Virus record (IMG/VR): IMGVR_UViG_3300007351_000001
DNA: 64,000 bases
Origin: a virus
Lineage: Duplodnaviria; Heunggongvirae; Uroviricota; Caudoviricetes
Strand: one strand, 5' to 3'
Under the pieces are notes generated by a model, which saw only the letters and a list, made by a program, of their open reading frames with translations, did no database searches and was not told where the DNA came from. Position numbers and translations under genes: made by a program. Position 1 is the stretch's first letter, and each line of letters begins with the position of its first letter. Shown here piece after piece: positions 11,600-58,102 of this stretch.

Positions 11600-11613
11600 C
11601 GAGGAGCTTGGCG

Positions 11614-15955: not shown

Positions 15956-16938
15956 GGATCGGAATGGGCGGGCACATCTACCCGCTACCACCGCGCGGCT
16001 ACGGTGGCGTCGAGCGCGTCGCCGCCTGGTGGTGCGACGAACTCACGCGCCGTGGGCACTACGTGCATATCTTCGGGCATCCCGACAGCTCGTGCGCGCA
16101 CGACCGACTGACCCCCGCGTACGCGCAGCAACACGTCGATGGCTTCGGGCCGGCCTACGCGCAGCTGGGCGACGACCTCGACCTGATTCACGACAACTCG
16201 GACTCGCACCCGTCACCGATGCGTTGGTGTCGGCCCGGCGGGGTCCAGCGACCCTTCGTGCACACCGTGCACGCGTGCGTCTGGCACCGCGGTAGTCCCT
16301 GCCCGGTCTTCCTTTCGCAGAACCAGGCGCGCTGGTTCGGTGCCGAGAACCCGGTGATCGCGCACAACGGCTTCCCGACTGACGCGTTCACCGTCGAGAC
16401 CAACAAGGAGGACTTCTTCCTCTGGTGCGGTTCGCTGCGGACCTGCAAGGCACCGGAGATGGCGATCCAGCTCTGTGAAGAGACCGGCGAGCGCTTGAAG
16501 ATCATCGGTCCGATCCAAGACGGCCGCTATCACCACTTCCCGCAGTCGTACCCGCGTGGGGGCCAGATCGAGTACTTGGGCGAGATGGGCGCGCAGCGCA
16601 TGGAGTACTTCCGCAAGGCGAAGGGGTTCCTCTACACCTGCTCGCAGGACTGGATGGAGGGGATGTGCCTCGTGCTCTGCGAGGCGATGCTCTCCGGCAC
16701 GCCGGTGATCGGCCTGGTGACACCGAACAACACCATCGTCGAAGAGGTCGTGCAGAATGGGCTCGGTGGGTACGCGTGCAAGGACTACGAGACGATGCGC
16801 GGCGCGATCACCAACGGCCTCTACCGACTCTGCTCGCCGCAGGAATGCCGCGAGAACGGGGAGCGATTCTCGATCGAGCGCACCGTCGATCGCTACCTGC
16901 AGATCTACCAGGACGCGCTCGGCGGGAAGGTGTGGTGA
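15952..16938 (+). CDS. glycosyltransferase family 4 / GT-B fold (328 aa)
   Basis: GGVERVAAWWCDELTRRGHYVH N-domain and CEAMLSGTPVIG (EX7E-type) C-domain; strong AAGGGAAGGAG RBS. Confidence 0.8.
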   Translation: MRIGMGGHIYPLPPRGYGGVERVAAWWCDELTRRGHYVHIFGHPDSSCAHDRLTPAYAQQHVDGFGPAYAQLGDDLDLIHDNSDSHPSPMRWCRPGGVQRPFVHTVHACVWHRGSPCPVFLSQNQARWFGAENPVIAHNGFPTDAFTVETNKEDFFLWCGSLRTCKAPEMAIQLCEETGERLKIIGPIQDGRYHHFPQSYPRGGQIEYLGEMGAQRMEYFRKAKGFLYTCSQDWMEGMCLVLCEAMLSGTPVIGLVTPNNTIVEEVVQNGLGGYACKDYETMRGAITNGLYRLCSPQECRENGERFSIERTVDRYLQIYQDALGGKVW

Positions 16939-34112: not shown

Positions 34113-37100
34113 GTGGAGGTGGCGGTGTTGGTGGAGGGGCAAGGAGCACCCTTGGGGGTGGGGCCGTTGGCGCCAGGTGGTGGTGCGGTGGATGCGGATG
34201 CGTTTCGTGCTGCACGTCCAACGTGGCTTCCGCACGAGATTGAACGAGCATTGCTGTCGAAGCAGCGGTGTCAGTTCTGCCGTCTCGGGCGGGACAAGCG
34301 CACGGGGTTCGTGGCAGTGGCGTCCAACGGCTCCCCCTCTCCTCAGATCCTCATCGTCGGCGAGGCGCCCGGCGGCGATGAAGACCGACAGGGCATCGCG
34401 TTCATCGGACGAGCCGCAGAGCATGGGAAGATGCTCCTGCAAAATGCGGGCGTGCCGTTGAGTGCAGTCAGATTCACGAATACCACGCGCTGCTTCCCAC
34501 AGGACGAGCACGGTTCACCACGCGAGCCGAACCTCTTTGAAGAAACGGCCTACTGTCTTGGGTACTTGTGGGAAGAGATCGACACCGTCCGCCCGAAGGT
34601 GATCGTCGCCTTGGGGAGCTACCCGGCGAGCATCCTCACCGGCGAGAAGACCGGCAGCATCTCGAAGATGTCGGGGCAGCTACGCACCATCACGGTGCGC
34701 GGCCGAGAGTACCCGGTCATCATGTGCGTGCACTTCTCGGCCGACTTGCGCTCGCACTACAAGTACTCCAACGCGATCACCGACGCGCTCGACACGGCGT
34801 GGAACCTCTGCCGCGAGATCGAGGTGCCGTGCACGACCGAGACGGTGAACGACACCAAATCGGCGCTCGCGTTCTTGAACGAGTTGCTCGCCCGGTACGA
34901 CGCCAAGGAGTTCGAGGCGGTCGCGTACGACTTGGAGTGGGACACTATTCTGCGCATCGGCAATGAGGCCGAGCGCGAGACGTACACGGACCTCTTCGAT
35001 CCCGAGAAGAAGATCGTCATGGCGTCCTTCGCGTGGTCGAAGGATCGCGGCACGTCGATCGTGCTGCACCACGACGAGAGCAAGGTCGACTGTGCGGTGG
35101 TCGAAGCGAAACTCCGCGAGGTCCTCAGCCGCGTTCCGGTGATCGCGCACAACTACCTCAAAGCCGAGGGGCCGTGGTCGGCGATGAAGCTCGGAGTGAC
35201 GCCCGAGCTGCACTTCGACACCATGCTCGCGTCGTTCGTGTTGCGCACCAAGACGGCAAGCCACGGCCTGAAGGTGCAGGCGAGCCGGTGGCTCAAGTGG
35301 CCGAACTGGTCGAAGAAGCTCGACGCGGTGGTGGCGAGCCTGCCGGCGGATCGACGCAGCTACAAGCACGCGCCGCTCGACCTGCTCGGTCGCTACTCGG
35401 CCGTCGACCCCGCGGCGACTTGGGGACTCTACGAGGTCTACAACGAGCACCTCGCCGAAGCCGACCGTCTGCTGCAGCCGCTCGATCTGCTGCACCGAGC
35501 GTCGCGCACGTTCATGAGCGTCGAGCTGCGTGGCGCGTTCATCGACCTCGACGAGCACGAGCGGCTGAAGCGCGACTACCCCGAACTCTTGAAAACCCAG
35601 ATGAAACTGTTGGCCTCGTACCCGCAGGTCAAGCGCTTCGTAGACCGCCGGCAGGCGGACATCGACAAGGCGATCGAGGGAACCAAACGCCGTCGCACAC
35701 TCTTCGCGTTCAACCCCGGCTCGAACGAGCACGTCGGTGACGTGATCTACGGCGAGTTCCAGGCGCCGATCCCACAGCCGACGAAGAAGGAGCGCAAGAA
35801 GGTCGAGAAGGTGATCGGCTCTTCGCTCGACGCTGGCGATCAGATGATCACCACGCCGCTGCGTGTGCCGAAGCTCCCAGACTCAATCTGGATCGGCCCG
35901 CCCGACGGCTCGGTCGAGACCGCCGAGCGCGTGAAGATCGACAAGCAAAACTCTGGGGACGGCATCACGCGCTTCCGCGCGCCGGTGCGATTCGCTCACC
36001 CGAGCCCGTTCTGGGTGTACCTCGGCCAACCGTCGACTTCGGATCTCTCGTTGCAGTGGTTGATGCGTGAGACACGCTGCAAGCCGTGCAAGGGCAGCGG
36101 CGAAGAGCAGGACGGGACGTGCCCGTCGTGTGGTGGGAGTGGGCGCCGCGGCGATCGCCGAATGCTCGCGAAGTTCCTGCAAGCCCACCGCGACTACAAG
36201 AAGATCGGCAAGATCAACGATGCCTACGTGCAGGCACTGCCGAAGTTCATCGTGCCGAACACCAACCAGCTGGTGTTCAACTACCTCTTGCACGGCACAG
36301 ACACGGGCCGTCTCGCCGCGCGCAACTTCGCGGTGCAGACCGTGCCGGCAAAGTCCGACATCCGCCGGCTGTTCGTTTCGCAGTGGAAGGATCGCGGCGG
36401 GCTGATCGTCGGCATGGACCAGTCGCAGGTCGAAATGCGCGTCATGGCCTCGATTGCGCAGGACGACCGCTTCATCTCGTTCTTCTTCACCTGCTCGAAC
36501 TTGGCGTGTGGGTACGTCGGCTCGCCGGCTGATTGCGGGACCTGCCCGAAGTGCGGCGCGAAGCTCGGCGGCGACATGCACCGGCAGGTCGCGTCCCAGG
36601 TGTTCCGTAAGGACCCGAAGGACGTCACTGATGGGGAGCGCAGCTCGGCCAAGACGATCGGCTTCGGCATCCTCTACGGCCGCGGCCCGGCCTCGATCGC
36701 CGTCGCGACCGACAACACGATCGCGCAAGCCGAGGCGATGATCCGCGACTTCTTCGGGCAGTTCCCCGGCGTCGAGGCCTGGGTGAAGGCGCGCCATCAG
36801 GACTGTCTCGACTTCGGATACGTCATGTCGGCGTGCGGCCGGCGGTTGTGGCTCGAAGGGGCGGTCTGGAAGGACGGCGAACTGCAGCGCGACCGGCACG
36901 GCAAGATCGTTTATGTCAGCGACCAGTCGCTCGCGGGCGCGCAGCGCAAGTCGCAGAACTACCCGATCCAGAGCGCGGCGTCGGACTTGACGCTCGAAGG
37001 CTTCCTGAATGCGTACGACGCGTTGGTCGCCGGCAACTTCCAGTCGCGACCGTGGGAGACGACGCACGACTCGATCGAACTCGACGTCTACCCCGGCGAG

Positions 37101-37445
37101 TTGCTGTCCGTGATCAAGACGGTGCGCGAGGCGATGACGACCCAAGTGCACCAGACCGCGCCGTGGCTGCGCGTCCCGCTGGAGATGGACGTCGAGATCG
37201 GCGTGCGGTGGGACGGTGCGGTGAAGTGCAAGTGGATCAACGAGCAGACCAACACGATGCGGGTCGTCGGCAAGAAGCTCTTCTACGACGACCTCGTCGA
37301 GCAGCTGCGCAAGGTCCACCAGGTTGATGAAGAGATCCTAAAGACGTTCGACGACCCAGAAGAGTTGAAGGGCGGTATCCGCAAGACCTACCAAGGTCGC
37401 AATGGCGGACTGCCGATGATCGACGCGCAGCTCACGATCCACTGA
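34113..37445 (+). CDS. family A DNA polymerase with N-terminal family-4 UDG-like domain, 3'-5' exonuclease region and two zinc-ribbon insertions (1110 aa)
   Basis: UDG4 motif ILIVGEAPGGDEDRQGIAFIG. Pol A motifs DQSQVEMRVMA (A), RSSAKTIGFGILYG (B), THDSIELDV (C). Insertions CKPCKGSG...CPSCGGSG and CGYVGSPADCGTCPKCG. Exact start (GTG/TTG near 34113-34152) is uncertain. Confidence 0.9.
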   Translation: MEVAVLVEGQGAPLGVGPLAPGGGAVDADAFRAARPTWLPHEIERALLSKQRCQFCRLGRDKRTGFVAVASNGSPSPQILIVGEAPGGDEDRQGIAFIGRAAEHGKMLLQNAGVPLSAVRFTNTTRCFPQDEHGSPREPNLFEETAYCLGYLWEEIDTVRPKVIVALGSYPASILTGEKTGSISKMSGQLRTITVRGREYPVIMCVHFSADLRSHYKYSNAITDALDTAWNLCREIEVPCTTETVNDTKSALAFLNELLARYDAKEFEAVAYDLEWDTILRIGNEAERETYTDLFDPEKKIVMASFAWSKDRGTSIVLHHDESKVDCAVVEAKLREVLSRVPVIAHNYLKAEGPWSAMKLGVTPELHFDTMLASFVLRTKTASHGLKVQASRWLKWPNWSKKLDAVVASLPADRRSYKHAPLDLLGRYSAVDPAATWGLYEVYNEHLAEADRLLQPLDLLHRASRTFMSVELRGAFIDLDEHERLKRDYPELLKTQMKLLASYPQVKRFVDRRQADIDKAIEGTKRRRTLFAFNPGSNEHVGDVIYGEFQAPIPQPTKKERKKVEKVIGSSLDAGDQMITTPLRVPKLPDSIWIGPPDGSVETAERVKIDKQNSGDGITRFRAPVRFAHPSPFWVYLGQPSTSDLSLQWLMRETRCKPCKGSGEEQDGTCPSCGGSGRRGDRRMLAKFLQAHRDYKKIGKINDAYVQALPKFIVPNTNQLVFNYLLHGTDTGRLAARNFAVQTVPAKSDIRRLFVSQWKDRGGLIVGMDQSQVEMRVMASIAQDDRFISFFFTCSNLACGYVGSPADCGTCPKCGAKLGGDMHRQVASQVFRKDPKDVTDGERSSAKTIGFGILYGRGPASIAVATDNTIAQAEAMIRDFFGQFPGVEAWVKARHQDCLDFGYVMSACGRRLWLEGAVWKDGELQRDRHGKIVYVSDQSLAGAQRKSQNYPIQSAASDLTLEGFLNAYDALVAGNFQSRPWETTHDSIELDVYPGELLSVIKTVREAMTTQVHQTAPWLRVPLEMDVEIGVRWDGAVKCKWINEQTNTMRVVGKKLFYDDLVEQLRKVHQVDEEILKTFDDPEELKGGIRKTYQGRNGGLPMIDAQLTIH

Positions 37446-46134: not shown

Positions 46135-46135
46135 A

Positions 46136-46215
46136 CCAGCCAGACGGAGATCCCGGTCGTGGCGGGGTTCAGACCGCTTCGGAGTCTGGCTGGGGCGCAC
46201 GCCCAGAGCGGCTCT
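46136..46215 (+). terminator. nested GC-rich hairpins after gene 45040..46134
   Basis: CCAGCCAGAC...GTCTGGCTGG (10-bp arms) enclosing CAGAC-cgcttcgga-GTCTG; no strong U-tract. Confidence 0.3.
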
Positions 46216-46325
46216 GAAGAGCCTGGTGGTTCCAGTCCAGAGGGCTGGTGAGGCCAGGCGCCAAAATACCGGTCGCGTGTGCGGCGACCGGCTAACCTGT
46301 GGACTGAGTGGGGGAGGTGCATCAA

Positions 46326-47264
46326 ATGCGTCGACTGTGGTGGGTAGTCGCATTCGCATTGGTGCTGCTGTTCGGCAGCATCGTCTTCGCCGGGCCGTCG
46401 AGCAGTCGCAGCGGTGGTGGGTTCGGCAGTTCGTCGCGTAGCGGGAGCTACAGCTCGCCCTCGCGCAGTGGGAGCGGTGGATTCGGGCGTTCGGCGCCAA
46501 AGGCAGCACCACCCGCTCGCGCGCCGTCGAGTGGTGGCTTTGGATCGTCGAAGCCAGCCGCACCGTCCGCACCAAAGGCCGCACCGCCAAGCAGTGGCGG
46601 ATTCGGCTACAGCTCGAAGCCGAAGCCAGCTGCACCGCCACCGGCCGCAAGTAACAGCGGCAGTGGTGGGAGTCGTAACAGCAGCGGGTGGTCAGGTGGA
46701 TTCGGGTCGTCAGCCAAGTCGGCAGCCGTCGGCGCCGCGGCTGGAGCTGCTGCAGCCTCCGCAGCGGGTGGGGATTCTGGGAGCACAGCGAGTGATCCTG
46801 CCACAGCACCAGCTGCGAAGCCGTACGGTGGATTCGGCGAGTCGGCGCCCAAGGCGGTCTCGGCGCAGAAGGCCACCGACCGCGCGCTGACGCAGATGGT
46901 CGGCAAATCGGGCAAGACCTACACGACCTCGCAAGAGGCTGAGGCGGATCTGCGCGCGAAACTCGCCACGGCCAAGCTGCCGACGGAGCCCGCCGATCGT
47001 CCCGACTTCGTGCCGTCGAGTTATTCGACGTCGGGACGCAACTACACGATCATCTTCCACGACGGCGGGTACGGGTACTGGCGCGACGATGGGTTCTGGA
47101 ACCCGTTGCCGGCCGAGGCGTACATCATCCGGGCGGCGCACTTAGCGGCGTACGGCTATCAGCCGTCGGTGGTGATCAGCGGCGGCTCGGTGATCATCTT
47201 GGTCGCCGTCTTTCTGGTCGTGGGAATCGTCATCGCAATCATCATCTACCGCATCGTGCAGTGA
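46326..47264 (+). CDS. Gly/Ser-rich repeat protein with N-terminal signal/TM helix and C-terminal TM anchor (312 aa)
   Basis: MRRLWWVVAFALVLLFGSIVFA signal-like; repeats SGGFGSS / GGFGRSAPKAAPP; C-terminal ILVAVFLVVGIVIAIIIY. Confidence 0.65.
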   Translation: MRRLWWVVAFALVLLFGSIVFAGPSSSRSGGGFGSSSRSGSYSSPSRSGSGGFGRSAPKAAPPARAPSSGGFGSSKPAAPSAPKAAPPSSGGFGYSSKPKPAAPPPAASNSGSGGSRNSSGWSGGFGSSAKSAAVGAAAGAAAASAAGGDSGSTASDPATAPAAKPYGGFGESAPKAVSAQKATDRALTQMVGKSGKTYTTSQEAEADLRAKLATAKLPTEPADRPDFVPSSYSTSGRNYTIIFHDGGYGYWRDDGFWNPLPAEAYIIRAAHLAAYGYQPSVVISGGSVIILVAVFLVVGIVIAIIIYRIVQ

Positions 47265-47276
47265 GAGGAGGGCAAC

Positions 47277-47858
47277 GTGGCACTACGAGCAGACCAGTTC
47301 CAACAGTTCTCAGCAGGCGATCTTCTCGTCCTGCGTGACATCCATGCCATGGAGGCGACCGGCCAGGCCGAGTGGTCGACGCCGATCAAGACCGTGCGGC
47401 GTTGGCGCTGCCAGGGCGGACAGCTTCGGTACACTCTGGCTGAGATCGCGTACGAGGACGCGCGCCTCGCGCTGATCATCAAAGAGGTTGGGGATGCCGC
47501 CGATCTCGTGGTCGGCCGCGTCTGGTCCGAGTACGTCGCGTCGACGCCGGACACAAGCGTACTGAACCTCTGGACGCCGAACGGCCGGCACATCGACTTC
47601 AGCCCAACGATGCGCGTGCAGATCGAGAACGAGGCCGTCGACTACGACCGGCTGCCCAACTTCCCATTCTGGGATGCGCAACTGGAAGGTACGACGGACG
47701 AACCGTCTGCGATCTGCGAATACCGCGCGACGAAGGCCGAGCCGAGTGCGTGGAATCGCAACGCGCTGGTAGAGTACTCGCCGCTGGGCGGGCTCACGAC
47801 GTTGTGGCTCGGCTGGGACATCAACCCGCGCGACGTCGACATGCTCGACCAGCGCTGA
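47277..47858 (+). CDS. hypothetical protein (193 aa)
   Basis: GTG start after GAGGAGGG RBS. Confidence 0.6.
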   Translation: MALRADQFQQFSAGDLLVLRDIHAMEATGQAEWSTPIKTVRRWRCQGGQLRYTLAEIAYEDARLALIIKEVGDAADLVVGRVWSEYVASTPDTSVLNLWTPNGRHIDFSPTMRVQIENEAVDYDRLPNFPFWDAQLEGTTDEPSAICEYRATKAEPSAWNRNALVEYSPLGGLTTLWLGWDINPRDVDMLDQR

Positions 47859-47885
47859 TCGCAACATCACATCAACGAGGAGGGC

Positions 47886-48596
47886 ATGGGAATGCGGCTA
47901 CTCAATCGACTCAAGGACATCGTCACCGCGGTGCTCGATCAGCGCGTGCAGGAGGCCGAGTCGCAGAACGCTGGCGCGCTCGCGCAGCAAGACATCGGCC
48001 GGCTCGAAGAAGCCCTGCGCGAGTCGTCCGGCGCTGTTGCCTCACTGGGCGCCGAAGTGCAAGCACAGGCCGACCTGGAAGCGGAACTGCGCGGGGAAGT
48101 ACAGCGCTGGCACGACGTCGCCAAGATCGAGGCCGAAGCCGGGCACGACGACACAGCGCGCCAGGCGCTGCAGCGCAAGCTCGACGCCGCGGCCGAACTC
48201 CAGGCGGTCTCGACCGGCTACGCGGCGTTGAAGGAACGCTTCGAGACGGCCAAGGGGCGCGTGCTGGAGAATGCCGAGCGTCTCCAGCAAGCGAAGTCGC
48301 GCGTCCGCACCGCCGTCGCGCGTGACCAGGCCGAGCAAGCAACCGCCGCGGCTGATCGCGCGTTCGGTGACCTCGGGGATCACGAAGACCTCTTCCAGCG
48401 CATCGACGTGATGGAGGATCACATCGAGCGTCGCGAGCGCACCAACGAAGAGGCGCGCAAGCTGGCCGATCAGATCGCCGGCAAGGATCTCCTCCGTGCG
48501 GCCGATCAGACGGCGCGCACGCGGGCGGTCGAGGACGAGCTGGCGGCGCTCAAGACCCCGCCGCCGGCCGCACCGGCGAGTTCACCGACTGCCTGA
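47886..48596 (+). CDS. PspA/IM30 (phage-shock protein A / LiaH / Vipp1) family protein, copy 1 (236 aa)
   Basis: N-terminal RLKDIVTAVLDQ amphipathic start, all-coiled-coil composition, AEAGHDDTARQALQRK (cf. KGREDLAREAL), DLFQRIDVMEDHIERRE (cf. ARFESFERRIDQMEAE); GAGGAGGG RBS. Confidence 0.75.
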   Translation: MGMRLLNRLKDIVTAVLDQRVQEAESQNAGALAQQDIGRLEEALRESSGAVASLGAEVQAQADLEAELRGEVQRWHDVAKIEAEAGHDDTARQALQRKLDAAAELQAVSTGYAALKERFETAKGRVLENAERLQQAKSRVRTAVARDQAEQATAAADRAFGDLGDHEDLFQRIDVMEDHIERRERTNEEARKLADQIAGKDLLRAADQTARTRAVEDELAALKTPPPAAPASSPTA

Positions 48597-48602
48597 GCAG
48601 CA

Positions 48603-49829
48603 ATGCTCGAAGACACTACAACCGGCGGCGCGGACCCTTCGCGCTCAGCCCTAGCTGAGTACCGTCGCCACAAGGTGACACGAGGCGATCTTCACCCGCC
48701 GCATGCGTACCAGCCGGTTGTAGAGGGGGAGGGTGGCGCATCCACCCTCCCCCGTCCTTCGGAAGGGAGTGAAACAGGACCAGCTCTTGGCCAAGTCAAT
48801 CGCACCCAAGCCGTGCCGCTCGTGTACGTCACTGGGGAGGAGCGCAGGCAGCTGCTGCGCTACGCGTATATCGCTGCGCGGTTCGGCAACCAGCTCCTCA
48901 CGTCCCAGTACGCGCAGTTCACCGCCCGACAGCAGATCGCGGCGCTCGCCGAGCAACACCAGGTGCCTGAGAAAGAGCTGCTGAAGGCGTGGACGGTCTA
49001 TCGGGACTTCGCCGACGAGCTGTCAGGCTACGTCCGCGATGCCGTGCAGCGGGAAGTGCAAGGGATCTGGAAGCGCCTTTTCAAAGACATCATGGCTGGC
49101 CGGCAGACGCTGGCCTGTTTCAGGATGCACCGGGCGCTCTCGATCCGCGGGCGCGGTGTCACGCTGTTCAAGGACCAGGACAGTGCGTACCACTTCACGT
49201 TCCGCTTCGGGCCACGGTCGGGTGCGCCGACCCAGCTCTCAGTGTACATGGACACGTTGTGCCGCAATCCGTTTCTCGAAGCGTTGCTCGACAAGCTGAT
49301 CGACGGCACCACGTACGAGATCACTCACGCGACGATTCGGATCCCACGCACCGGCAACAAGCTGAAGGTGCTGCTGGGTTACCGGAAACCGGCTGTCGCG
49401 CAGCTGGTGCATGAGACGCGAGCCTTGGTCGCGCTCGAAGCGGGCGTGCTCGTTGTGCGCTGCGGCTCGACCATGATGACGCTTGGGGACCGTGTCTACC
49501 GCCTCCGTGAGATGAAGCTCCACCTCGACGGGATCCAGCGGCGCTTGCGCGCCACGCTCAATCGTCGCAGCCGGCGTGGGGAGTATCGCCGCCAGCTCGC
49601 ACACGCGCAGAGCTTCGAGGAGTGGGCGCGGACTCCACTGCATCAGCTAAGCAGTGAGATCGTCACGTGGGCACAGCGAGCCGGGGCCGGCCAACTCGTC
49701 TATATGATGCCGAGCACGGCCGACCTGCCCTGGGCGACGCTGCATCAGCAACTGGAGTACAAGAGCGCTGAGCACGGCATGCGGTACGAACGAAGAGAGA
49801 CGAAAGTTGAAAAGTCTGACGAGCCGTAG
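48603..49829 (+). CDS. hypothetical protein (408 aa as ORF; true start probably downstream of the strong hairpin at 48729-48760)
   Basis: Protein-like from about residue 60 onward; no recognisable catalytic motifs. Confidence 0.5.
   Translation: MLEDTTTGGADPSRSALAEYRRHKVTRGDLHPPHAYQPVVEGEGGASTLPRPSEGSETGPALGQVNRTQAVPLVYVTGEERRQLLRYAYIAARFGNQLLTSQYAQFTARQQIAALAEQHQVPEKELLKAWTVYRDFADELSGYVRDAVQREVQGIWKRLFKDIMAGRQTLACFRMHRALSIRGRGVTLFKDQDSAYHFTFRFGPRSGAPTQLSVYMDTLCRNPFLEALLDKLIDGTTYEITHATIRIPRTGNKLKVLLGYRKPAVAQLVHETRALVALEAGVLVVRCGSTMMTLGDRVYRLREMKLHLDGIQRRLRATLNRRSRRGEYRRQLAHAQSFEEWARTPLHQLSSEIVTWAQRAGAGQLVYMMPSTADLPWATLHQQLEYKSAEHGMRYERRETKVEKSDEP
48729..48760 (+). other. strong stem-loop GGGGGAGGGTGG-cgcat-CCACCCTCCCCC
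   Basis: 12-bp perfect GC-rich stem ~130 nt downstream of the PspA-1 stop, inside the annotated 5' end of the next ORF. Confidence 0.45.
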
Positions 49830-49883
49830 CAACAATCGTTGAGCCGGCTCGCACGGGGCGGGCCATTGTGGAAGGAGTGAGCA

Positions 49884-50495
49884 ATGATGCGGATCAAGAT
49901 CGGTGAGGGTGACGAGGCCGACGACTACGGCGTCGGGTTCGGATACCAGGAGAAGCGGCGCGGCCGGACGCGGAAGCAGGGCGGAACCCCGCACTTGTCG
50001 GTCACAACGACGGCGATCGTCCAGCTGCCCAAGCGGTTCCAGTTTGCCGATGTGTTCGGCGTCGGGCCGCACCAGACGGACGAGGACGGCACTCTGCGCG
50101 GGGTCGTGACGATCCACGATGACGAGGGTGACCCGACGTTGACGGCCGAGGAACGCGCCAAGCACGCGTTCGTGGTCGAAGTCGTGCAACCGAAGGGCAA
50201 GGACGAGGCGCTCGATCGCGTCATGCTGATCGCCAGAACACGGTGCCACTCAGTGGCGGACGTCTACGATCGCGGCCGTGGCCGGCGCGGGGCGTTGCGC
50301 CGAGTGCTGACCGGGTTCAAGCAACTGCTTCCTGACGTCTATCTCGCCAAGGGCGATCGCCGCAGCGTACTCGCCAAGCAGATCTGGGCGATGTACTTCG
50401 ACCGCACGCGGGACGGCGTCGAGTTTGGCATGCGCGGCCCGTTTCTGAAGACGGACAAGAAAGAGGCTGTGCTGGATCCCGCTCCTTTGGAGTGA
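49884..50495 (+). CDS. hypothetical protein (203 aa)
   Basis: GGAAGGAG RBS; protein-like. Confidence 0.65.
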   Translation: MMRIKIGEGDEADDYGVGFGYQEKRRGRTRKQGGTPHLSVTTTAIVQLPKRFQFADVFGVGPHQTDEDGTLRGVVTIHDDEGDPTLTAEERAKHAFVVEVVQPKGKDEALDRVMLIARTRCHSVADVYDRGRGRRGALRRVLTGFKQLLPDVYLAKGDRRSVLAKQIWAMYFDRTRDGVEFGMRGPFLKTDKKEAVLDPAPLE

Positions 50496-50497
50496 CC

Positions 50498-51925
50498 ATG
50501 TCCTTGAAGTACCGCGCAGAGTTGCACGGGACGAACCACTACGTGTTGCCGCGCATCGGCACGATGCGGTGCGACGTGCACGCGTTCATGTCCCCAGAGC
50601 TGTACACGATCAGCGACGAAGGCACCTGGCAACAAGCCTTCGACGCTGCGTCGTACCCGAACGTGCGCGGAGTCTACCTGATGCCCGACTGCCATCTCGG
50701 GTACGGCATCCCGGTTGGCGGTGTAGTTGTCACCGACGGCGTGATCATCCAGTCGGGGTCGGGGTACGACATCTCATGCGGTGTCATCTACATGCGCTTG
50801 CCGGGAGTCACCGCAGCCGACGTCGTTGACTGGGAGCGCCGGCTGCGATGGGTGCGGGAAGTCGAGCTGCGGGTGGCCACTGGTGTCGGCCGGCACCGCC
50901 CGAAGCTCGCCCCCAAGATCACTGGTCGGATGATCGCCGAGGTCTTGCTCCACGGTGCCAAGCCCTTGGGCGTGTCGGCCGACGTGTGCGAGCGGCAGTT
51001 CATCCAGGTCGACGAGAAGCACTTCGACTCACAGCGGGTCGAGCGCGCCATCGAGCGTGCTGGCGACCAGCTTGGCTCGGTCGGCGGCGGCAACCACTTC
51101 ATCGAGCTGCAGGTGGATCGAGACACCGGTGAGGTGTGGGCGATGGTGCACTGTGGCAGCCGCGGCTTTGGTTGGCAGACGGCCAACCACTTTTTCTTCG
51201 CGGGCGCGGAAGCGCGCGGCCTGCCGAAGAACCGGCGCGAGTCGTCGTGGCTGTACGCCGACGAAGAAGTCGGGAAGCAGTATTGGGCGCATCACAACGC
51301 GGCGGCGAACTACGCGATCGCCAACCGGCACATGATCGTCGAAGGCGTGCGCGAGGCGACGCAGGAAGTGTTCGCGGCGAGCCCAGAGGTCTACTTCGAG
51401 ATCTCGCACAACCTCGTGCAAGACGAGCGCGTGCTCGTGCCTGGTGCGGACGGCTCCTACGAGTTTGTGCGTGGGTTCGTGCACCGTAAAGGCGCGACGC
51501 GCGCCTTCCCGGCACACCACCCCGATCTCGTCGGGACGAAGTGGGAAGAGACTGGGCACCCGTGTCTGATTCCAGGCTCGATGCTCGACGGAGCTGCGAT
51601 CTTGTTCCCGACCTTCCGCACGGTGGAGAGCGGGTTCTCAGTCAACCACGGCTCGGGTCGTGCCGTGGCGCGTGGACAGGCCAAGCGAGATCTCGAACCG
51701 CTGCAAGAGGACATCGACACCGAAATGCGGACGATCCGCCGCACAGTCGGCCCCGACCGGGTCGAGATCGTGGGCATTGTTGGCAACACAGCGAAGACGC
51801 CACTCGATGAGTGCGGACACGTCTACAAGAAGCTCGACCAGGTTGTAGGATCGCTGGTTGATGCCGGCGTGGCCACCGTTAGTGCGCGACTGTATCCCGT
51901 GGCGAACTTGAAAGGGACGGACTGA
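50498..51925 (+). CDS. rtcB: RtcB RNA 3'-phosphate ligase (475 aa)
   Basis: MPDCHLGYGIPVGGV, GSVGGGNHFIE, HNLV, GSM, NHGSGR: the conserved RtcB metal/GMP-binding motifs, in order. Confidence 0.9.
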   Translation: MSLKYRAELHGTNHYVLPRIGTMRCDVHAFMSPELYTISDEGTWQQAFDAASYPNVRGVYLMPDCHLGYGIPVGGVVVTDGVIIQSGSGYDISCGVIYMRLPGVTAADVVDWERRLRWVREVELRVATGVGRHRPKLAPKITGRMIAEVLLHGAKPLGVSADVCERQFIQVDEKHFDSQRVERAIERAGDQLGSVGGGNHFIELQVDRDTGEVWAMVHCGSRGFGWQTANHFFFAGAEARGLPKNRRESSWLYADEEVGKQYWAHHNAAANYAIANRHMIVEGVREATQEVFAASPEVYFEISHNLVQDERVLVPGADGSYEFVRGFVHRKGATRAFPAHHPDLVGTKWEETGHPCLIPGSMLDGAAILFPTFRTVESGFSVNHGSGRAVARGQAKRDLEPLQEDIDTEMRTIRRTVGPDRVEIVGIVGNTAKTPLDECGHVYKKLDQVVGSLVDAGVATVSARLYPVANLKGTD

Positions 51926-52032
51926 CGCTGGGCCTTGCTCGTGGTGGGGTGAGGTCCGGTTCTGCCCGAGGCGGTTGGTGTTGGGAAGAGCGCCAGCCGT
52001 CTCGGGTTCCACCGAGTGAAAGGAGGAGGGCG

Positions 52033-52695
52033 ATGGCTGTTCGTGATCGGGTACACCGATTGGTCACCGGTGCGTTTCATCAGATGATCTCTGCGATCGA
52101 GAACCAGGCTCCAGATGCCGTGATGGAGCAGGCGATTCGCGAGGCTGACGAGGCAACCGAGGAAGCTCGCAGTGAGTTGGCGCAAGTGCTGACGCGACAG
52201 CATTTGGCGTCGTCGCGTATCGCACGCGATACGGACGCGCTGCGCGCACTGGACGCGCAGGTGCAGTTGGCTCTGAAGGAGAAACGAGAGGACCTCGCGC
52301 GCGAAGCAGTCGCGCGGCAACTGGACCTCGAAGCGCAACTGTCGGTCGTGCAGGAGGCGGCGGATCACGAAGCGCATGCACGCGCTGACCTCGAACGCAT
52401 GATCCTCGCGCTCGATGCCCAGCGGCGAGAGATGCGCGAGGAGTTGGCAGCGTTCCGCGCTCAGCAGGACCGGGCCGTTCCAGGCGTTGACGCACCACCG
52501 ATGGGTGGCGTCACGGGGACCGTCGCGGAGCAGCGGGCTCGCCGGGCGAAAGAAGTGTTCGGCGATGTCATGAGCCGGCAGACGAATCTCCCGCGGCCAC
52601 TCGGGTCCACCAGCAAGCTCCAAGAGTTGGCGGACCTGGAGCGGACACATCGGATTGACGAACGACTCGCTGCTGCGAAGGCACAGCAAGGTTAG
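52033..52695 (+). CDS. PspA/IM30 family protein, copy 2 (220 aa)
   Basis: MAVRDRVHRLVTGAFHQMISAIEN..., ALKEKREDLAREAVARQLDLEAQL (cf. PspA [20 protein letters not shown]); GGAGGAGGG RBS. Confidence 0.75.
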   Translation: MAVRDRVHRLVTGAFHQMISAIENQAPDAVMEQAIREADEATEEARSELAQVLTRQHLASSRIARDTDALRALDAQVQLALKEKREDLAREAVARQLDLEAQLSVVQEAADHEAHARADLERMILALDAQRREMREELAAFRAQQDRAVPGVDAPPMGGVTGTVAEQRARRAKEVFGDVMSRQTNLPRPLGSTSKLQELADLERTHRIDERLAAAKAQQG

Positions 52696-52697
52696 CC

Positions 52698-53384
52698 GTG
52701 ACTTCCTTCACCTTCCTGCTGCAGGCGGGCGTGTGGCCGTTCACGGCAAGCCTGTCCTTGGTCGTGGTGCTCGCGATCTTGGAGTTCATGACGTACGTGG
52801 CAGGCCTTGGTGGAATCACGCATGCATTCGAGCACGCCTTTGGTGTCGATCTCGATGGCGACTTCGACATGGCGCACCCAGATTTCTCTCACGGGGGCGT
52901 CTTCGTAAAGGCCGTGAACTGGGCGCGGGTGGGAGAACTTCCACTGTCGATCTTACTGATCACGTGGTGGTTCCTCTTCGGCATCGTGGGGGTGGGGGCA
53001 CAATACGCGTCGTCGATCGTGCTTGGTGGTGCCACGATGCCGTTTTGGATCGTGGTCTGGCCAGTGATGGCCGTGTCGATTGGCGCGTACCGAGGGTGCG
53101 CGCGGATCTTTGTGCGGGTCTTGCCGACTGATGTCGAGACGTACGCGGTCGAGCCGTCGTCGTTCGTCGGAAGGACGGCAACTGTGGTCATGGGTACGGC
53201 GACCGTGACCGCCCCTGCTCAAGCTCGCTTGGTGGATCAGTACGGGAACGCGCACTACGTCATGGTCGAGCCGAGCGATCCAGAGCAGGCGTTCGCGCCT
53301 GGTGCCACCGTGCTGCTTGTTGAACAAAACGACGCGGTATTCCGCGTTATCAACCCGCCGAGCGCACTGTTACTCGGCACGTGA
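52698..53384 (+). CDS. YqiJ/YuaF (NfeD-like) membrane protein with C-terminal OB-fold (228 aa)
   Basis: Several TM helices, then GRTATVVMGTATV...ARLVDQYGNAHYVMVEP...GATVLLVEQNDAVFRV (NfeD beta-barrel pattern); located directly upstream of a flotillin gene as in yqiJK/yuaFG. Confidence 0.65.
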   Translation: MTSFTFLLQAGVWPFTASLSLVVVLAILEFMTYVAGLGGITHAFEHAFGVDLDGDFDMAHPDFSHGGVFVKAVNWARVGELPLSILLITWWFLFGIVGVGAQYASSIVLGGATMPFWIVVWPVMAVSIGAYRGCARIFVRVLPTDVETYAVEPSSFVGRTATVVMGTATVTAPAQARLVDQYGNAHYVMVEPSDPEQAFAPGATVLLVEQNDAVFRVINPPSALLLGT

Positions 53385-53397
53385 TGGGGGAGAGCTG

Positions 53398-55194
53398 ATG
53401 GAAGGTTTGATCGGAATCGGGATGGTGGTCGCAGTCTGCATGGCCGGGCTGGGTGCGATTGCCTTCATGATGTCGCGGCTCTACGTGCGCGCCACGCCCG
53501 AGTGGGCACTGGTCCGCAGCGGCTACCGCGGCAAGAAGGTTGTGATCGACGGCGGGTGCTTCGTCCTGCCGGTCTACCACGAGATCCAGCGGGTCAACAT
53601 GAAGACGGTGAAGCTCGCCGTCACGCGCCAGCAGCGGGACTCGTTGATCACCAAGGATCGGCTGCGCGTCGATGTCATCGTGGAGTTCTACGTCCGCGCC
53701 AAGCCGGACGCGACGGCGATCCCGGAAGCGGCTCGGACGCTCGGGGAGCGCACCGCCGACCAAGCGGCGCTCAAGGATCTCATCGAGGGCAAAGCGGTCG
53801 GCGTGCTGCGTGCGGTTGCGGCGCGCATGACGATGGCAGAGCTGCACGAGGACCGGGCGAAGTTCGAGCAGGAAGTGCTGAACGGCGTGCAGAAGGACCT
53901 GACGAAGAACGGCCTCGAACTGGAGTCGTCGGCGATGACGCACTTCAACCAGACGGCCAAAGAGTTCTTTGTCGCCGAGAACGCCTTTGACGCCGAAGGG
54001 CTCGCAATGCTCACCGCTGCGGTCGAGCAGCGTCGGCAAGAGGTGAACAACATCGAGGTGACCACGCGCGTGGCGATCGAGACGCGCAATCTCGAAGGGC
54101 AGCGGCGATCGTTGCAACTCGCGCAGGATACGCAGGAGGCGATGCTGACTCAGCAGCTCGCCATCGAGACCGCCACTGCGCAGCGCAAACGTGAGATCGC
54201 ACAACAGCAGGCAGAGCAGGATCGGCTGGCGCAAGAGGCGCAGATCGCCGCGCAACAGCAAGTGCAGCTGGCGTCGGTCGAAGCCGAACGGACTGTGCAA
54301 GAGGCGAAGGCGCAACAGCACGCCGCCGTGCAACAGGCGCAGATCGCTTCAGAGCGGGCGGTGAAGGTGGCCGACGAACAGCGCCAGCGTGATGTGGCGG
54401 TGGCGGCTGAGGAACGTCAGCGTGACGTGGAAGTGGCCAAACAGGAGCGCAACATCAAGGTGCAGACCAAGAGCGAGGAGCTGTCGGGTGCCACGGCCAG
54501 TGCTGAACGCGCTCGTGCCGAGGCGGTCGTAGCCGAGCAGCAGGTCATCACGGCCCAAGCGGTGGCCTCCGCGGATCGTGAGAAGCAAGTGGCGGTGATC
54601 GCGGCTGAGCGCGAGGCACAGCAGGGGGCGGTCGGCCTGGTGGTCAACGCCAAGGCGCATGAGGATGCCGCCGCACACGAGGCCGCAGCTGTCATGGTGA
54701 GAGCGACGGCGGATACCGACGCCAAGCGCCTCGCCCTGGAGATCGCGGAGCGTGACTTCGCGGTCCGCGCCACGGGCACGCGGCTCTTGCACGAGTCCGA
54801 GAACGTGCTCGGGCAGTCGGCGATGGACTTGCGGCTGCGCCTGGCCCTGGTCGAGCACGCCGCGGCGATGATCACTGCGGCCGGCAAGCCGGTCGAGCAC
54901 ATCAAGGATCTGCGGGTCATTGCCGTGCAGGGCATTCCGGGGCTGGCGGGGCCGTTGCCGGTGAACGGCGACGGCTCTACCGTTGCCAACGGCACTGGGC
55001 ACGACGCCGGATTGCCCGACCAGATCGTCAATGCGGCCCTGCGTCACCAGGCGCTCGCGCCGCTGGTTGGGCTGTTGATGGGGGAGATCGGCATCGACCC
55101 CACGACCATGAATGGCATTGCTCGCCCTCTGACTGACATGGCGGTGGCGCGGCCCGCCCACCCAGCGAACGGAGATGCCCGAGCGTCGAGCTAA
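53398..55194 (+). CDS. flotillin / SPFH (band-7) family protein, YqiK/FloT-like (598 aa)
   Basis: N-terminal TM helix, SPFH core (YHEIQRVNMKTVKLAVTRQQRDSLITKDRLRVDVIVEFYVR), long Ala/Gln/Glu-rich coiled coil (flotillin repeats). Confidence 0.85.
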   Translation: MEGLIGIGMVVAVCMAGLGAIAFMMSRLYVRATPEWALVRSGYRGKKVVIDGGCFVLPVYHEIQRVNMKTVKLAVTRQQRDSLITKDRLRVDVIVEFYVRAKPDATAIPEAARTLGERTADQAALKDLIEGKAVGVLRAVAARMTMAELHEDRAKFEQEVLNGVQKDLTKNGLELESSAMTHFNQTAKEFFVAENAFDAEGLAMLTAAVEQRRQEVNNIEVTTRVAIETRNLEGQRRSLQLAQDTQEAMLTQQLAIETATAQRKREIAQQQAEQDRLAQEAQIAAQQQVQLASVEAERTVQEAKAQQHAAVQQAQIASERAVKVADEQRQRDVAVAAEERQRDVEVAKQERNIKVQTKSEELSGATASAERARAEAVVAEQQVITAQAVASADREKQVAVIAAEREAQQGAVGLVVNAKAHEDAAAHEAAAVMVRATADTDAKRLALEIAERDFAVRATGTRLLHESENVLGQSAMDLRLRLALVEHAAAMITAAGKPVEHIKDLRVIAVQGIPGLAGPLPVNGDGSTVANGTGHDAGLPDQIVNAALRHQALAPLVGLLMGEIGIDPTTMNGIARPLTDMAVARPAHPANGDARASS

Positions 55195-55246
55195 GGTCGT
55201 TCGTGTCGGTGACCACAGTAGTGCGTCGGCGATCTCGATTGCGGTG

Positions 55247-55507
55247 ATGGGGCTGGCTCTCAAAGAGCAGCCCCTCACCAACGTCGAGCTGCAATACCTG
55301 CGCGAGCAGTCTGGGATCACGATCGACACGATGGCGAACGTGGTGTGTTTGACACCACGGACTGTGCGTCGAATCGAGGACGGCAGATCAAAGCTGGCGT
55401 ACGCCGCTGAGGCGCTCTGGCGCCTCGCTGCCGTTCACTGGTTCGCGGTCCGTGCAGAACGATTCATCCTCTACAACCGACCCGCATCGAGACGGAGGGC
55501 TTCGTGA
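55247..55507 (+). CDS. small HTH protein (~86 aa)
   Basis: LREQSGITIDTMANVVCLTPRTVRRIEDG helix-turn-helix; start uncertain. Confidence 0.45.
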   Translation: MGLALKEQPLTNVELQYLREQSGITIDTMANVVCLTPRTVRRIEDGRSKLAYAAEALWRLAAVHWFAVRAERFILYNRPASRRRAS

Positions 55508-56895
55508 TGTGGCGCATCAACCCGATCCTGTGCACGGACAGCTACAAGCACACGCACCATCCGCAGCTGCCACCGGACGCCGAGGTCTTCTTCTCGTACT
55601 TCGAGGCGCGTGGTGGCGACTACCCAGCCACCAACTGGTTTGGGTTGCAGGCGATCATCCAGGAGCACCTCATCGGTGAGGTCATCACCGACGAAGACAT
55701 CTACGAGGCGCGCGACGTCGCCCGCTTCCTGCACGGCGGTGAGGATTACTTCAACATCGACGGGTGGCGGCGCATTGTGGGCGACCACGGCGGCAAGTAC
55801 CCGGTGCGCATCCGCGCGGTACCCGAAGGCACCTGGGTGCCGACCTCGAACGTGCTCTACACCATGGAGAACCGCGACAAGAAGCTGCCGTGGCTGAACA
55901 GCCACTTGGAGACCATGTGCGTGCAGTCGTGGTACCCGATGGGCGTCTCGACGCTGAGCGGTTTCCTGAAACCGATCTTTCAGCGGTATCTCGAACAGAC
56001 CGGATCGCCGGAACTGCTCCGGACGAGACTCCATGACTTCGGGATCCGTGGCACAACCTGCATGCACCAAGCGGCACGCGGCGGTGCTGGGCACCTCGTG
56101 CACTTTGATGGCACCGACAACTACCCAGCGATGTTGCTGCTGCGCGACTTCTACGGCGGCAAGCTCTACGGCTCGTCGGTGCCGGCCGCGGAGCACTCGA
56201 CGATCACGTCGTGGGGTCCTGAGCGTGAGCAGGATGCGTACGAGAACCTCCTGCGCCAATACCCGCGCGGACTGGTCGCCCTGCCGACTGATTCGTACAA
56301 CACGCTGAAAGCGATCCACATGTTGACTGTGACTCTGCGCGACTTGGTGGAAGCGCGCGACGGCGTCTTGGTCATGCGGCAGGACTCCGGTGACCCGAGT
56401 GAGACGATGCGCCAGGTCTTGGCGGTCGCCGGCCAGAACGCCGGGTACCACCTGAACGACAAGAGCTACCGAGTGTTGAACCCGAAGTACCGGGTCCTGC
56501 AATCTGAAGGCGTGAATCGCGCCGAGATCAACCAGATGCTCTGGCTCCTCACCAACAACACCTGGTCGATCGACAACATCGTCTTCGGCATGGGCGGTGC
56601 GCTTCTGCAGAAGCTCGATCGCGACACGTCTTTCTGCGCGTGCAAGTGCTCGTGGGTCGGGCTCTCTGACGGAACGGGCCGCGACGTCTACAAAATGGCG
56701 CCCGGCAAACGTTCCAAGCGCGGCCGACTGAAGCTCGTCGAACAGAAGGGCGAGCTGACCACGGTCCGGCAGGAAGAAGCTGGCAAGGATCTCCTGGAGG
56801 ACATCTACGACTGCGGCCAGCTGCTCAACCCGTACACCTTCGACCAGGTGCGAGCGAACGCCGAAGCGTCTTGGCGTCCGCGGTGGGCGCACTGA
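55504..56895 (+). CDS. nadV: nicotinamide phosphoribosyltransferase (NadV/NAMPT), 463 aa
   Basis: NPILCTDSYKHTHHPQLP, DFGIRGTT, GSSVPAAEHSTITSWG. Confidence 0.9.
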   Translation: MMWRINPILCTDSYKHTHHPQLPPDAEVFFSYFEARGGDYPATNWFGLQAIIQEHLIGEVITDEDIYEARDVARFLHGGEDYFNIDGWRRIVGDHGGKYPVRIRAVPEGTWVPTSNVLYTMENRDKKLPWLNSHLETMCVQSWYPMGVSTLSGFLKPIFQRYLEQTGSPELLRTRLHDFGIRGTTCMHQAARGGAGHLVHFDGTDNYPAMLLLRDFYGGKLYGSSVPAAEHSTITSWGPEREQDAYENLLRQYPRGLVALPTDSYNTLKAIHMLTVTLRDLVEARDGVLVMRQDSGDPSETMRQVLAVAGQNAGYHLNDKSYRVLNPKYRVLQSEGVNRAEINQMLWLLTNNTWSIDNIVFGMGGALLQKLDRDTSFCACKCSWVGLSDGTGRDVYKMAPGKRSKRGRLKLVEQKGELTTVRQEEAGKDLLEDIYDCGQLLNPYTFDQVRANAEASWRPRWAH

Positions 56896-57173
56896 TGGAG
56901 CTGAACGACACCACCTGGGTGCTGATCGGTGTGCCAGAGGCGCTCACCAAACTCGCTCCGGACGTCCACTGGTCACAGACCCACGTCTGCTGCACGTGCG
57001 GCGAGCGGCTCTACACCAACGAAGAGATGCGCGGGATTCTCGCCAGCGCCGACCATCACATCCACACCGTGTGCTTTCGCTGTGGGCTGAGTCTTGCAGA
57101 GAAGCACAAGGATGACGTCGCGATCGAGTGGGTTGAGGAGATCGCGGAAGGCATGAAAGGGCCACTGCAATGA
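56895..57173 (+). CDS. hypothetical Cys/His-containing small protein (92 aa)
   Basis: ATGA overlap with nadV stop; CCTCGERLY...HHIHTVCFRCG. Confidence 0.5.
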   Translation: MELNDTTWVLIGVPEALTKLAPDVHWSQTHVCCTCGERLYTNEEMRGILASADHHIHTVCFRCGLSLAEKHKDDVAIEWVEEIAEGMKGPLQ

Positions 57174-58102
57174 CGGACATGCAGCCAGTCGAAGAGAGCG
57201 GTAGTCGTAGCGTCGGGATCGTGATCGGCCGCTTTCAGGCCCACGCGTTGCACCATGTGCACCGCTCGCTGATCGAGTATGTCATGGGGCAACACAGCCG
57301 CGTCGCGATCTTCCTGGGGGTCGCGCCGATCCCCGGCACGCCGCGCAACCCGCTCGACTTCGAGACGCGCAAGCGCATGCTGCAGGACGTCTGGCCGGAC
57401 CTGCCGGTGCTCGATCTGCACGACCGCCCGACCGACGACGAGTGGAGCCAACTGCTCGACGAGCGCGTGCGCTCGCTCTATCCGACGCAGAAAGCCGTGC
57501 TCTACGGTGGGCGCGATTCGTTCATCAGTCACTACACCGGCCGGTTGCCGGCGCGTGAGCTGGAGCCGGCAACGTACGTAGCCCAAGTCTCAGCCACGCA
57601 GCTGCGCCAGCTTGCGGCCTCGGGCGTGGCGGCGTCAGAGGACTTCCGCCGCGGCGTGATCTTCGGGGTCCACAACCGTTACACGCGCACCGCGATCCCC
57701 GCCGTCGACATCGCTGTGGTTCGTGGGGAGGAGCAGGTACTGCTCGGCCGCAAGCCGCACGAGACCGGCTGGCGTTTCCCTGGCGGCATCGTCGAAGACG
57801 ACGAAACCTACGAGCAGGCCGTGCTGCGGGAGTTGCGCGAGGAAGCCGGTGCGCTCGACGTCGAGGACCTCCACTACTTGGCGAGCTTCAAGGTCGATGA
57901 CTGGCGCTACCGCGGTGAAGCGATGGGCATCATGACCGCCTTCTATCGCGCGACGTGGGTCGCCGGTACGCCGCTGCCGGGCGATGATCTCGCCGAGGTC
58001 CGTTGGGCGGGGCTCGTGTCGCTCACGCAGGAGGAGATCGTCCCGTCGCACTGGCCCTTGGTGCAGAAGCTCTGGTACCCGCCGACTCGGACGGAACGCT
58101 GA
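57170..58102 (+). CDS. nadM: bifunctional NMN adenylyltransferase / Nudix hydrolase (NadM-Nudix), 310 aa
   Basis: GIVIGRFQAHALHHVH (HxGH nucleotidyltransferase) and Nudix box GGIVEDDETYEQAVLRELREEAG. Confidence 0.85.
   Translation: MTDMQPVEESGSRSVGIVIGRFQAHALHHVHRSLIEYVMGQHSRVAIFLGVAPIPGTPRNPLDFETRKRMLQDVWPDLPVLDLHDRPTDDEWSQLLDERVRSLYPTQKAVLYGGRDSFISHYTGRLPARELEPATYVAQVSATQLRQLAASGVAASEDFRRGVIFGVHNRYTRTAIPAVDIAVVRGEEQVLLGRKPHETGWRFPGGIVEDDETYEQAVLRELREEAGALDVEDLHYLASFKVDDWRYRGEAMGIMTAFYRATWVAGTPLPGDDLAEVRWAGLVSLTQEEIVPSHWPLVQKLWYPPTRTER

Follow-up and report, generated by a model that had tools for sequence, protein, structure and literature searches.

PspA and flotillins are classic host proteins of envelope stress and membrane organisation, and PspA was named after its induction by a phage protein. 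The combination of PspA with a YqiJ/YuaF protein and a flotillin has already been described in bacteria (Ravi et al. 2024, mSystems, PMC11237479), and bacterial PspA proteins encoded with Band_7/FloT, NfeD and helix-turn-helix (HTH) regulators have likewise been reported (Popp et al. 2022, PMC9239133). In Bacillus subtilis, PspA depends for its recruitment to the membrane on the SPFH protein YdjI together with the membrane proteins YdjG/H (PMC8581546). CesT/Tir-PspA dyads of the Escherichia coli yjfIJ type are accompanied by lipoprotein, DUF350, DUF2491 and K+ channel partners (PMC11237479). Among phages, the Jug jumbo gut phages transcribe a pspA-like gene beside terD (PMC12880540). Here a related gene block is described in a 64,000-nucleotide stretch (the window, below) of the IMG/VR virus record IMGVR_UViG_3300007351_000001 (Caudoviricetes), which encodes two PspA/IM30 proteins (PspA1 and PspA2), a YqiJ-flotillin pair and two orphan proteins of 318 and 193 residues (p318 and p193).

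The block consists of two units and not of the single co-directional module including RtcB that an earlier note on this DNA had proposed. Unit A (46308–48596) is a p318-p193-PspA1 cassette that had been missed, since the note let the block begin at 47886, upstream of which Unit A starts at 46308. Unit B (52033–55194) is a PspA2-YqiJ-flotillin triad. RtcB, a gene for a 203-residue protein and the TnpB-like gene p408 lie between the two units and are not conserved with them (Table 1). The shared orientation of the block is uninformative, because beyond about 23.9 kb in the window every gene of at least 150 residues supported by GC content at third codon positions (GC3) lies on the + strand. The start codons are supported by strong Shine-Dalgarno sites, by alignment with homologues and by the source's own call of a 598-residue flotillin.

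Table 1. Features of the block and of its surroundings, with positions in the window.
Feature	Position	Strand	Remarks
Family A DNA polymerase (PolA)	34113-37445	+	N-terminal uracil-DNA-glycosylase-superfamily domain
p318, two-transmembrane membrane protein	46308-47264	+	First gene of Unit A; transmembrane segments 7-33 and 284-318
p193, soluble beta-rich protein	47277-47858	+	Second gene of Unit A; very rare family
PspA1, divergent full-length PspA/IM30 (ESCRT-III-like)	47886-48596	+	PF04012 46.4 bits (cut-off 33.9), residues 5-224
p408, 408-residue TnpB/Cas12f-like protein	48603-49829	+	Without the C-terminal Zn-finger/RuvC-III part
203-residue protein	49884-50495	+	GC3 0.83, coding-type; stop codon overlaps RtcB start codon
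RtcB RNA ligase	50492-51925	+	PF01139 273 bits, model 1-426 of 426; phrog_1075 227 bits
PspA2, PspA/IM30 of the bacterial triad subfamily	52033-52695	+	PF04012 65.8 bits (cut-off 33.9)
YqiJ/YuaF-type protein, flotillin partner	52698-53384	+	Three transmembrane segments and OB fold; PF21001 YqiJ_N 56.9 bits, PF07290 YqiJ_OB 88 bits
YqiK/FloT-type flotillin	53398-55194	+	Transmembrane segment, SPFH, coiled coil, Flot; Band_7 PF01145 65.6 bits, Flot PF15975 59.2 bits
Small HTH protein	55175-55507	+	Overlaps end of flotillin gene; HTH_31/HTH_3, all below Pfam cut-offs
Nampt	55504-56895	+	NAMPT_N and NAPRTase; phrog_448 410 bits
Nmnat-Nudix, bifunctional-looking	57170-58102	+	Cytidyltransferase/NMNAT N-terminal half and Nudix

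Both PspA proteins exceed the PF04012 cut-off across most of their length, and the PspA/IM30 signature that had been recognised in them was thereby upheld. They were also taken to be two paralogues, and here the comparison gives a different picture: with only 25% identity over 113 residues they belong to different subfamilies and are not recent paralogues. The hydrophobic moment peaks at the N-terminal 18-mer in both proteins (0.60 in PspA1 and 0.57 in PspA2), and each is predicted from its sequence to possess an amphipathic membrane-binding helix at the N-terminus. The two proteins score 43 and 20 bits with the E. coli PspA equivalog TIGR02977, against an NCBIfam cut-off of 243. PHROGs holds no family that matches PspA1 or PspA2, and PADLOC gives no match for any protein of the module.

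Unit B is a known bacterial operon type carried by a phage-like element. Its three genes are contiguous on the same strand, with gaps of 2 nt between PspA2 and YqiJ and of 13 nt between YqiJ and the flotillin. The PspA2 family profile aligns end to end with solved Vipp1/PspA chains, and the AlphaFold model of PspA2 (predicted local distance difference test, pLDDT, 78.8) presents an N-terminal helix, a long hairpin and C-terminal helices, with helical segments at residues 2–23, 27–82, 86–147, 164–182 and 192–219. When this model was compared with the PDB by Foldseek, the top 17 matches were all Vipp1/PspA, and E. coli PspA (4WHE) superposes on it at 1.5 Å over 117 columns. The next protein had been described as NfeD-like, with a transmembrane segment and an OB fold. 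The membrane part (three segments by hydropathy) and the OB fold stood, while PF01957 (NfeD) is absent from its Pfam matches and the YqiJ_N and YqiJ_OB models match instead. The assignment of an SPFH/flotillin gene adjoining its YqiJ partner, as in the bacterial pair, proved correct, with Band_7 and Flot both above their cut-offs. The flotillin has a transmembrane segment at residues 1–30 (hydropathy), PF01145 at 45–183 and PF15975 at 436–566; its SPFH domain matches flotillin-1 structures and its identity to bacterial proteins named YqiK or flotillin is about 43%. It is not FloT itself, since the NCBIfam FloT equivalog gives 26.8 bits against a cut-off of 700. The window YqiJ is nearer to the YqiJ of bacterial triads than to YqiJ on viral contigs, and the flotillin is about equidistant from its bacterial and viral-contig counterparts.

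The bacterial counterparts of Unit B are widespread. The closest PspA2 homologues (36–45% identity) all lie within PspA-YqiJ-flotillin operons, and the triad was seen around PspA2 homologues in a Rubrivivax metagenome-assembled genome and in two other metagenome contigs. With one genome scanned per species, PspA2-type PspA was found in at least 301 bacterial genomes (Pseudomonadota, Desulfobacterota, Myxococcota, Planctomycetota and others), and in 69 of the 77 bacterial loci with enough flanking DNA the YqiJ and flotillin genes directly follow it. On the viral side, a 30%-GC contig (L003) also holds a triad-type PspA-YqiJ-flotillin set. Among 5.8 billion proteins, no homologue was found that exceeds 45% identity to the phage copies of Unit B. 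No CesT/Tir-like gene lies directly upstream of PspA2, where RtcB is found, and a hidden Markov model built from four CesT_Tir_1 proteins finds none in the window; the 167–171-residue proteins encoded upstream in bacterial triad loci are themselves without a Pfam match. The HTH gene that overlaps the end of the flotillin gene has a GC3 of 0.70, as low as that of PspA2; it encodes a possible regulator and is perhaps a part of Unit B.

Unit A has so far been seen only on phage-like contigs. Its first protein, p318, begins with a signal or transmembrane segment and ends in a transmembrane anchor, and between the two lie a long low-complexity linker rich in Gly/Ser and a conserved domain of about 100 residues; p318 has no match in Pfam, PHROGs, NCBIfam or PADLOC. 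The p193 family counts 11 members among 5.8 billion proteins, and a pattern-limited scan of 185,579 species genomes found no relative. PspA1 aligns over its full length to solved Vipp1/PspA chains of the PDB, and its relatives among 1.84 billion representatives comprise one at 46% identity and others at 36% or less. The 46% relative sits on a 53.6-kb phage-like contig of 55% GC (L023), preceded by homologues of p318 and p193. The cassette was found on about eight contigs, and its synteny is kept in L023, L002, L025, L026/27, L028/29, L032 and L033, whose GC ranges from 31 to 65%; p318 homologues occupy the equivalent position in L023, L002, L025, L026, L028/29 and L033. The order p318-like, p193-like, CesT_Tir_1, PspA is found in L002 (a 469.6-kb IMG/VR contig), L025, L026/27, L028/29, L032 and L033. 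The 173-nt intergenic stretch upstream of p318 (46135–46307) folds into three GC-rich hairpins (minimum free energy −90 kcal/mol, z = −2.69) and may mark a transcript boundary or give rise to a small RNA.

The two units are tied functionally by their arrangement in L002 and L025, where the cassette directly follows the YqiJ-flotillin pair in the order YqiJ, flotillin, p318-like, p193-like, CesT, PspA. Related gene sets were found to recur on other giant-phage contigs, as a synteny check suggested in the earlier note would ask. YqiK-type flotillins were found on 17 IMG/VR loci, eight of which are on contigs of 380–543 kb. These IMG/VR matches came only from the flotillin and PspA2 family alignments; scans with the single flotillin, the single PspA2, the p193 alignment and the PspA1 alignment gave no matches. 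With a flotillin pair joined to PspA in L002, L025 and L003, or to XpaC/TelA in the Sinorhizobium phage Phosso, large phages combine the flotillin pair repeatedly with PspA or some other envelope-stress protein, and the phage of the window is unusual in holding a cassette-type and a triad-type PspA together. K+ channel genes were also observed beside the cassette: a channel of the Ion_trans_2 and RCK type is encoded immediately after the cassette PspA in L002 (14484–15410), and a ligand-gated SBP_bac_3 and Ion_trans_2 type one gene further downstream in L033 (3109–4161). These channels would fit a role in membrane energetics, as would the K+ channel association of bacterial CesT-PspA operons reported by Ravi et al. 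(PMC11237479).

Gene identities, membrane topology, synteny and recurrence across contigs being established, we infer from them the functional steps, the timing and the benefit of the module. The region is proposed to be a phage-encoded two-unit system that maintains the host inner membrane, a reading to which slightly better than an even chance is given. Unit B, the bacterial PspA-YqiJ-flotillin operon, would have been acquired in one piece at a distant time. As in the bacterial systems, its membrane-anchored flotillin and the YqiJ protein with three transmembrane segments and an OB fold would form an inner-membrane scaffold that recruits the soluble, ESCRT-III-like PspA2. With its amphipathic N-terminal helix, PspA2 would then polymerise wherever the bilayer is stressed or leaking, thereby sealing the membrane. 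In Unit A, the conserved domain of p318 would be exposed outside the cytoplasm in a sensor or anchor role, and the divergent PspA1 would be put in place by p318 jointly with p193, a beta-rich protein of the cytoplasm. The recruitment of PspA by YdjI and YdjG/H in B. subtilis provides the analogy for both steps, with YqiJ-flotillin acting for PspA2 and p318/p193 for PspA1. The PspA polymers would preserve the proton-motive force, and with both units at work the infected cell would stay sealed and energised for the whole of a long jumbo-phage cycle. The threats countered in this way might include premature lysis, damage that proteins of the phage itself cause to the envelope, and abortive-infection effectors that permeabilise the membrane.

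Several observations weigh against this proposal. The mean GC3 of the window is 0.85, but PspA2, YqiJ and the HTH gene reach only 0.70–0.76, a difference compatible with a later acquisition of these genes. In the window, 3.4 kb of unrelated genes intervene between Unit A and Unit B, and the cassette is without the CesT/Tir-like chaperone that most other copies have. Neither p318 nor p193 has a known fold or function in Pfam or NCBIfam. Most IMG/VR flotillin loci are without a PspA within 10 kb. Finally, virion and terminase genes are absent from the 64-kb window, so the assignment to a phage rests on replication genes, tRNAs and contig size.

By these characters an uncultured jumbo phage with a GC content of about 65%, the value found for the window, is the best reading of the element. 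In addition to PolA, the window encodes a DnaB-like helicase, a primase, a gp32-like single-stranded DNA-binding protein, a UvsX-like recombinase, a further helicase, a PDDEXK/RusA-like resolvase, an exonuclease and a dCMP deaminase, and 10 tRNAs are dispersed over it. A Joint Genome Institute (JGI) contig of 241,426 bp is the recorded source of the flotillin, PspA2 and p193 proteins. The genes of the block are real and lie on a phage-like element, as had been supposed. No close relative emerged among isolated phages: PolA is at most 30% identical to that of any isolated phage, the sole megablast match to isolated phages is a 45-nt stretch in RtcB, and tblastn with PspA1, PspA2, the L025 PspA and p408 gave no match in 50,697 phage records. 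Three further observations concern the element and its relative L023. The tRNA at 202–275 (−) was assigned a four-base anticodon, ctgg, by ARAGORN, and Rfam confirms it as a tRNA with 52 bits; it may be a tRNA of the frameshift-suppressor type, or the call may be an artefact. The open reading frame at 11033–11647 (−) is 56% identical to DNA in the 13607–16025 region of L023 that lies immediately upstream of an RF-1-domain gene and overlaps it. That RF-1-domain gene directly precedes the gene of a 707-residue Band_7 protein, another SPFH gene in a relative of the window phage.

Between the units, RtcB does lie between the two PspA genes, as the earlier note had it, and the 408-residue TnpB-like and 203-residue proteins are encoded there as well. 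RtcB occurs within 10 kb of the module in only one other locus, L003, and the 203-residue protein has no match in Pfam, PHROGs, NCBIfam or PADLOC. The matches of p408 are weak (NCBIfam guided_TnpB at 34 bits against a cut-off of 100, over model positions 5–338 of 389; PADLOC Cas12f at 3.5e-9; the phrog_506 transposase at 1.8e-5). It appears to be without the RuvC-II glutamate, it is missing at the corresponding place in L023, and a TldR-like TnpB derivative that has lost its nuclease activity is one possibility for it; no stable RNA structure was seen downstream of it (z = −0.74). An active insertion sequence was considered for p408 and rejected, the gene being present in a single copy in the window and its protein truncated; terminal repeats were not looked for. 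The coincidence with RpoN regulons to which the earlier note had drawn attention is left without support, because the canonical sigma-54 −24/−12 consensus (TGGCAC-N5-TTGCW-like, with invariant GG/GC) is absent from the whole window. Similarly, the classical Psp regulon partners PspB, PspC and PspF are absent from the block, scans for sigma-70 promoters and terminators were no better than in shuffled sequence or uninformative, and the k-mers shared between intergenic regions are tRNA sequence only. Directly downstream of the module, Nampt and Nmnat-Nudix are by their domain content a predicted NARP2-like pair for NAD+ reconstitution, the latter scoring 61.9 bits with the NCBIfam bifunctional NMNAT/Nudix models, far below the cut-off of 397. 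NARP2 (Nampt plus Nmnat) has been defined as an experimentally shown anti-defence pathway (10.1101/2024.02.11.579819).

The presence of RtcB inside the block and of the NAD+ genes beside it invites a reading in which the module, RtcB as a tRNA-repair enzyme and the NARP2-like pair form a dedicated counter-defence island that restores the targets of abortive infection, with PspA and flotillin resealing attacked membranes. The experimental standing of NARP2 favours it, as do RtcB near the triad in L003 and NAD+ genes near the cassette in L025 (NAD_synthase and CTP_transf_like) and L026 (NAPRTase). However, the co-location is loose, with RtcB near the module in one of the other loci and NAD+ genes in two, and large phages cluster many auxiliary genes anyway; the island is considered unlikely on balance. 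The missing PADLOC matches, which might be held against it, say nothing on an anti-defence role because PADLOC models defence proteins. The membrane module may nevertheless be a third arm of a repair island beside RtcB for tRNA and the NARP2-like pair for NAD+, the link between them being loose. Equally doubtful is the wider idea that jumbo phages carry a self-contained ESCRT-III-like repair machine, seemingly confined to phage-like contigs (p318 as sensor or anchor, p193, a CesT-like chaperone and PspA together with YqiJ-flotillin), that reseals effector-punctured membranes as a broad counter-defence. The genes could also be passenger cargo, or serve superinfection exclusion or defence against other phages, without supporting the replication of the phage itself, since Unit B is bacterial in type and slightly atypical in GC3 and the TnpB-like gene hints at past mobility. 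Such a role is improbable in view of the intact reading frames with their strong Shine-Dalgarno sites, the large distance to every bacterial homologue (identities of 45% or less), the recurrence of the cassette on phage contigs of very different GC and the lack of PADLOC matches. A recent host insertion, which the earlier note had itself raised as an objection, was ruled out: the block is not recent cargo because its best homologues among the 5.8 billion proteins are no more than 45% identical and its codon usage is close to that of the rest of the window (correlation 0.71–0.95 for the block genes and 0.59 for the short HTH gene).

The remaining readings assign the PspA proteins to other tasks than maintenance. 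PspA/Vipp1 belongs to the ESCRT-III membrane-remodelling superfamily, a title that the matched PDB entries bear, and PspA polymers with flotillin scaffolds might shape vesicles or platforms for genome protection, replication or assembly. The occurrence of the genes mostly on very large phage contigs would agree with this, and the presence of different PspA types in the same genome, two in number, points beyond plain repair. Yet neither a Vps4-like AAA+ ATPase nor another partner for remodelling is encoded in the block, the homologues of Unit B in bacteria are operons of envelope stress, and among about 40 proteins scanned there were no chimallin-type nucleus or lipid-metabolism genes, although no search was aimed at them; remodelling is regarded as a rather remote prospect, slightly behind cargo. 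The weakest candidate is that the phage PspA proteins are decoys against host PspA-based signalling, either the Psp response or the cyclases of cyclic-oligonucleotide-based antiphage signalling systems (CBASS) that conjugation to host PspA keeps inactive; reversible conjugation of a CBASS CD-NTase to host PspA has been reported (10.1101/2023.09.29.560134). A decoy would have no need of the conserved membrane partners YqiJ, flotillin, p318 and p193, and the whole operon structure is retained; the high divergence of the phage PspA proteins from host-type PspA speaks in its favour, and it is still very improbable.

If the proposal of a two-unit maintenance system is correct and phages do encode complete systems of this kind, membrane integrity and the proton-motive force would be resources that large phages actively manage, in a manner comparable to their handling of nucleotides, tRNAs and NAD+. 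The module would then represent a testable class of countermeasure against immune effectors that kill by membrane permeabilisation, and would give a first biological context to the orphan families p318 and p193, constant companions of a divergent PspA. Should the counter-defence reading hold, the module would be the membrane equivalent of NAD+ rebuilding (NARP) or of tRNA religation (RtcB), both of which are encoded alongside.

In relation to the known systems, the phage precedents are partial. The gp238 protein of the Acinetobacter jumbo phage ME3 is named PspA/IM30 in BFVD, but it fails PF04012 and none of the module partners accompany it, and ME3 was on these grounds ruled out as a cultured precedent. 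In the ME3 genome (KU935715 183400–185731; L117 33400–35731) gp238 is separated from the AAA ATPase gp236 only by gp237, a gene for a 62-residue membrane protein, a pairing reminiscent of ESCRT-III with Vps4. The isolated 469-kb phage Phosso does possess a YqiJ-flotillin pair, its SPFH protein being 38% identical to the window flotillin; the pair is followed by XpaC-like (Halogen_Hydrol) and TelA genes (L001 9814–11548), with no PspA in the flanking 8 kb on either side. None of the sources on Phosso, Jug and ME3 describes the combined module, and phage SPFH and pspA-like genes have been mentioned in passing. The literature on PspA, flotillin or SPFH in phages likewise yielded no paper on a phage PspA-flotillin module, which agrees with the earlier view that the combination was undescribed in phages; that view did not take into account the bacterial operon (PMC11237479, PMC9239133) and the pspA-like gene of jumbo gut phages (PMC12880540).

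The remaining comparisons are with bacterial systems. The pspA-ydjGHI operon of B. subtilis has a common logic with the window locus, in that an SPFH protein and integral membrane partners are encoded beside PspA. In contrast, YdjI is a soluble SPFH protein of the Band_7_1 type and YdjG/H are unrelated to YqiJ, p318 and p193, with no homology detected. Similarly to the yjfIJ-type dyads of E. coli, the phage cassette on other contigs has CesT_Tir_1-PspA after an envelope-exposed membrane protein and a soluble protein, and a K+ channel follows twice; the Pfam families known from those operons, however, have no match in p318 or p193, and the window copy has lost CesT. A third comparison is with the bacterial operons of CesT/Tir-PspA, YqiJ/YuaF and transmembrane Band_7-flotillin proteins (PMC11237479). 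From these the window copy differs by its location on a phage-like genome, by RtcB in the place of CesT/Tir upstream of PspA2, by the absence of an AAA+ ATPase or phospholipase D partner and by identities of at most 45%. The PspA-YqiJ-flotillin order and the domain architectures are the same, the nearest PspA2 and YqiJ homologues come from such operons, and an HTH gene adjoins the triad, an arrangement reported for Acidobacteriota (PMC9239133). The components and the bacterial operon being already known, what is new here is a phage variant of this bacterial system with two orphan partner families.

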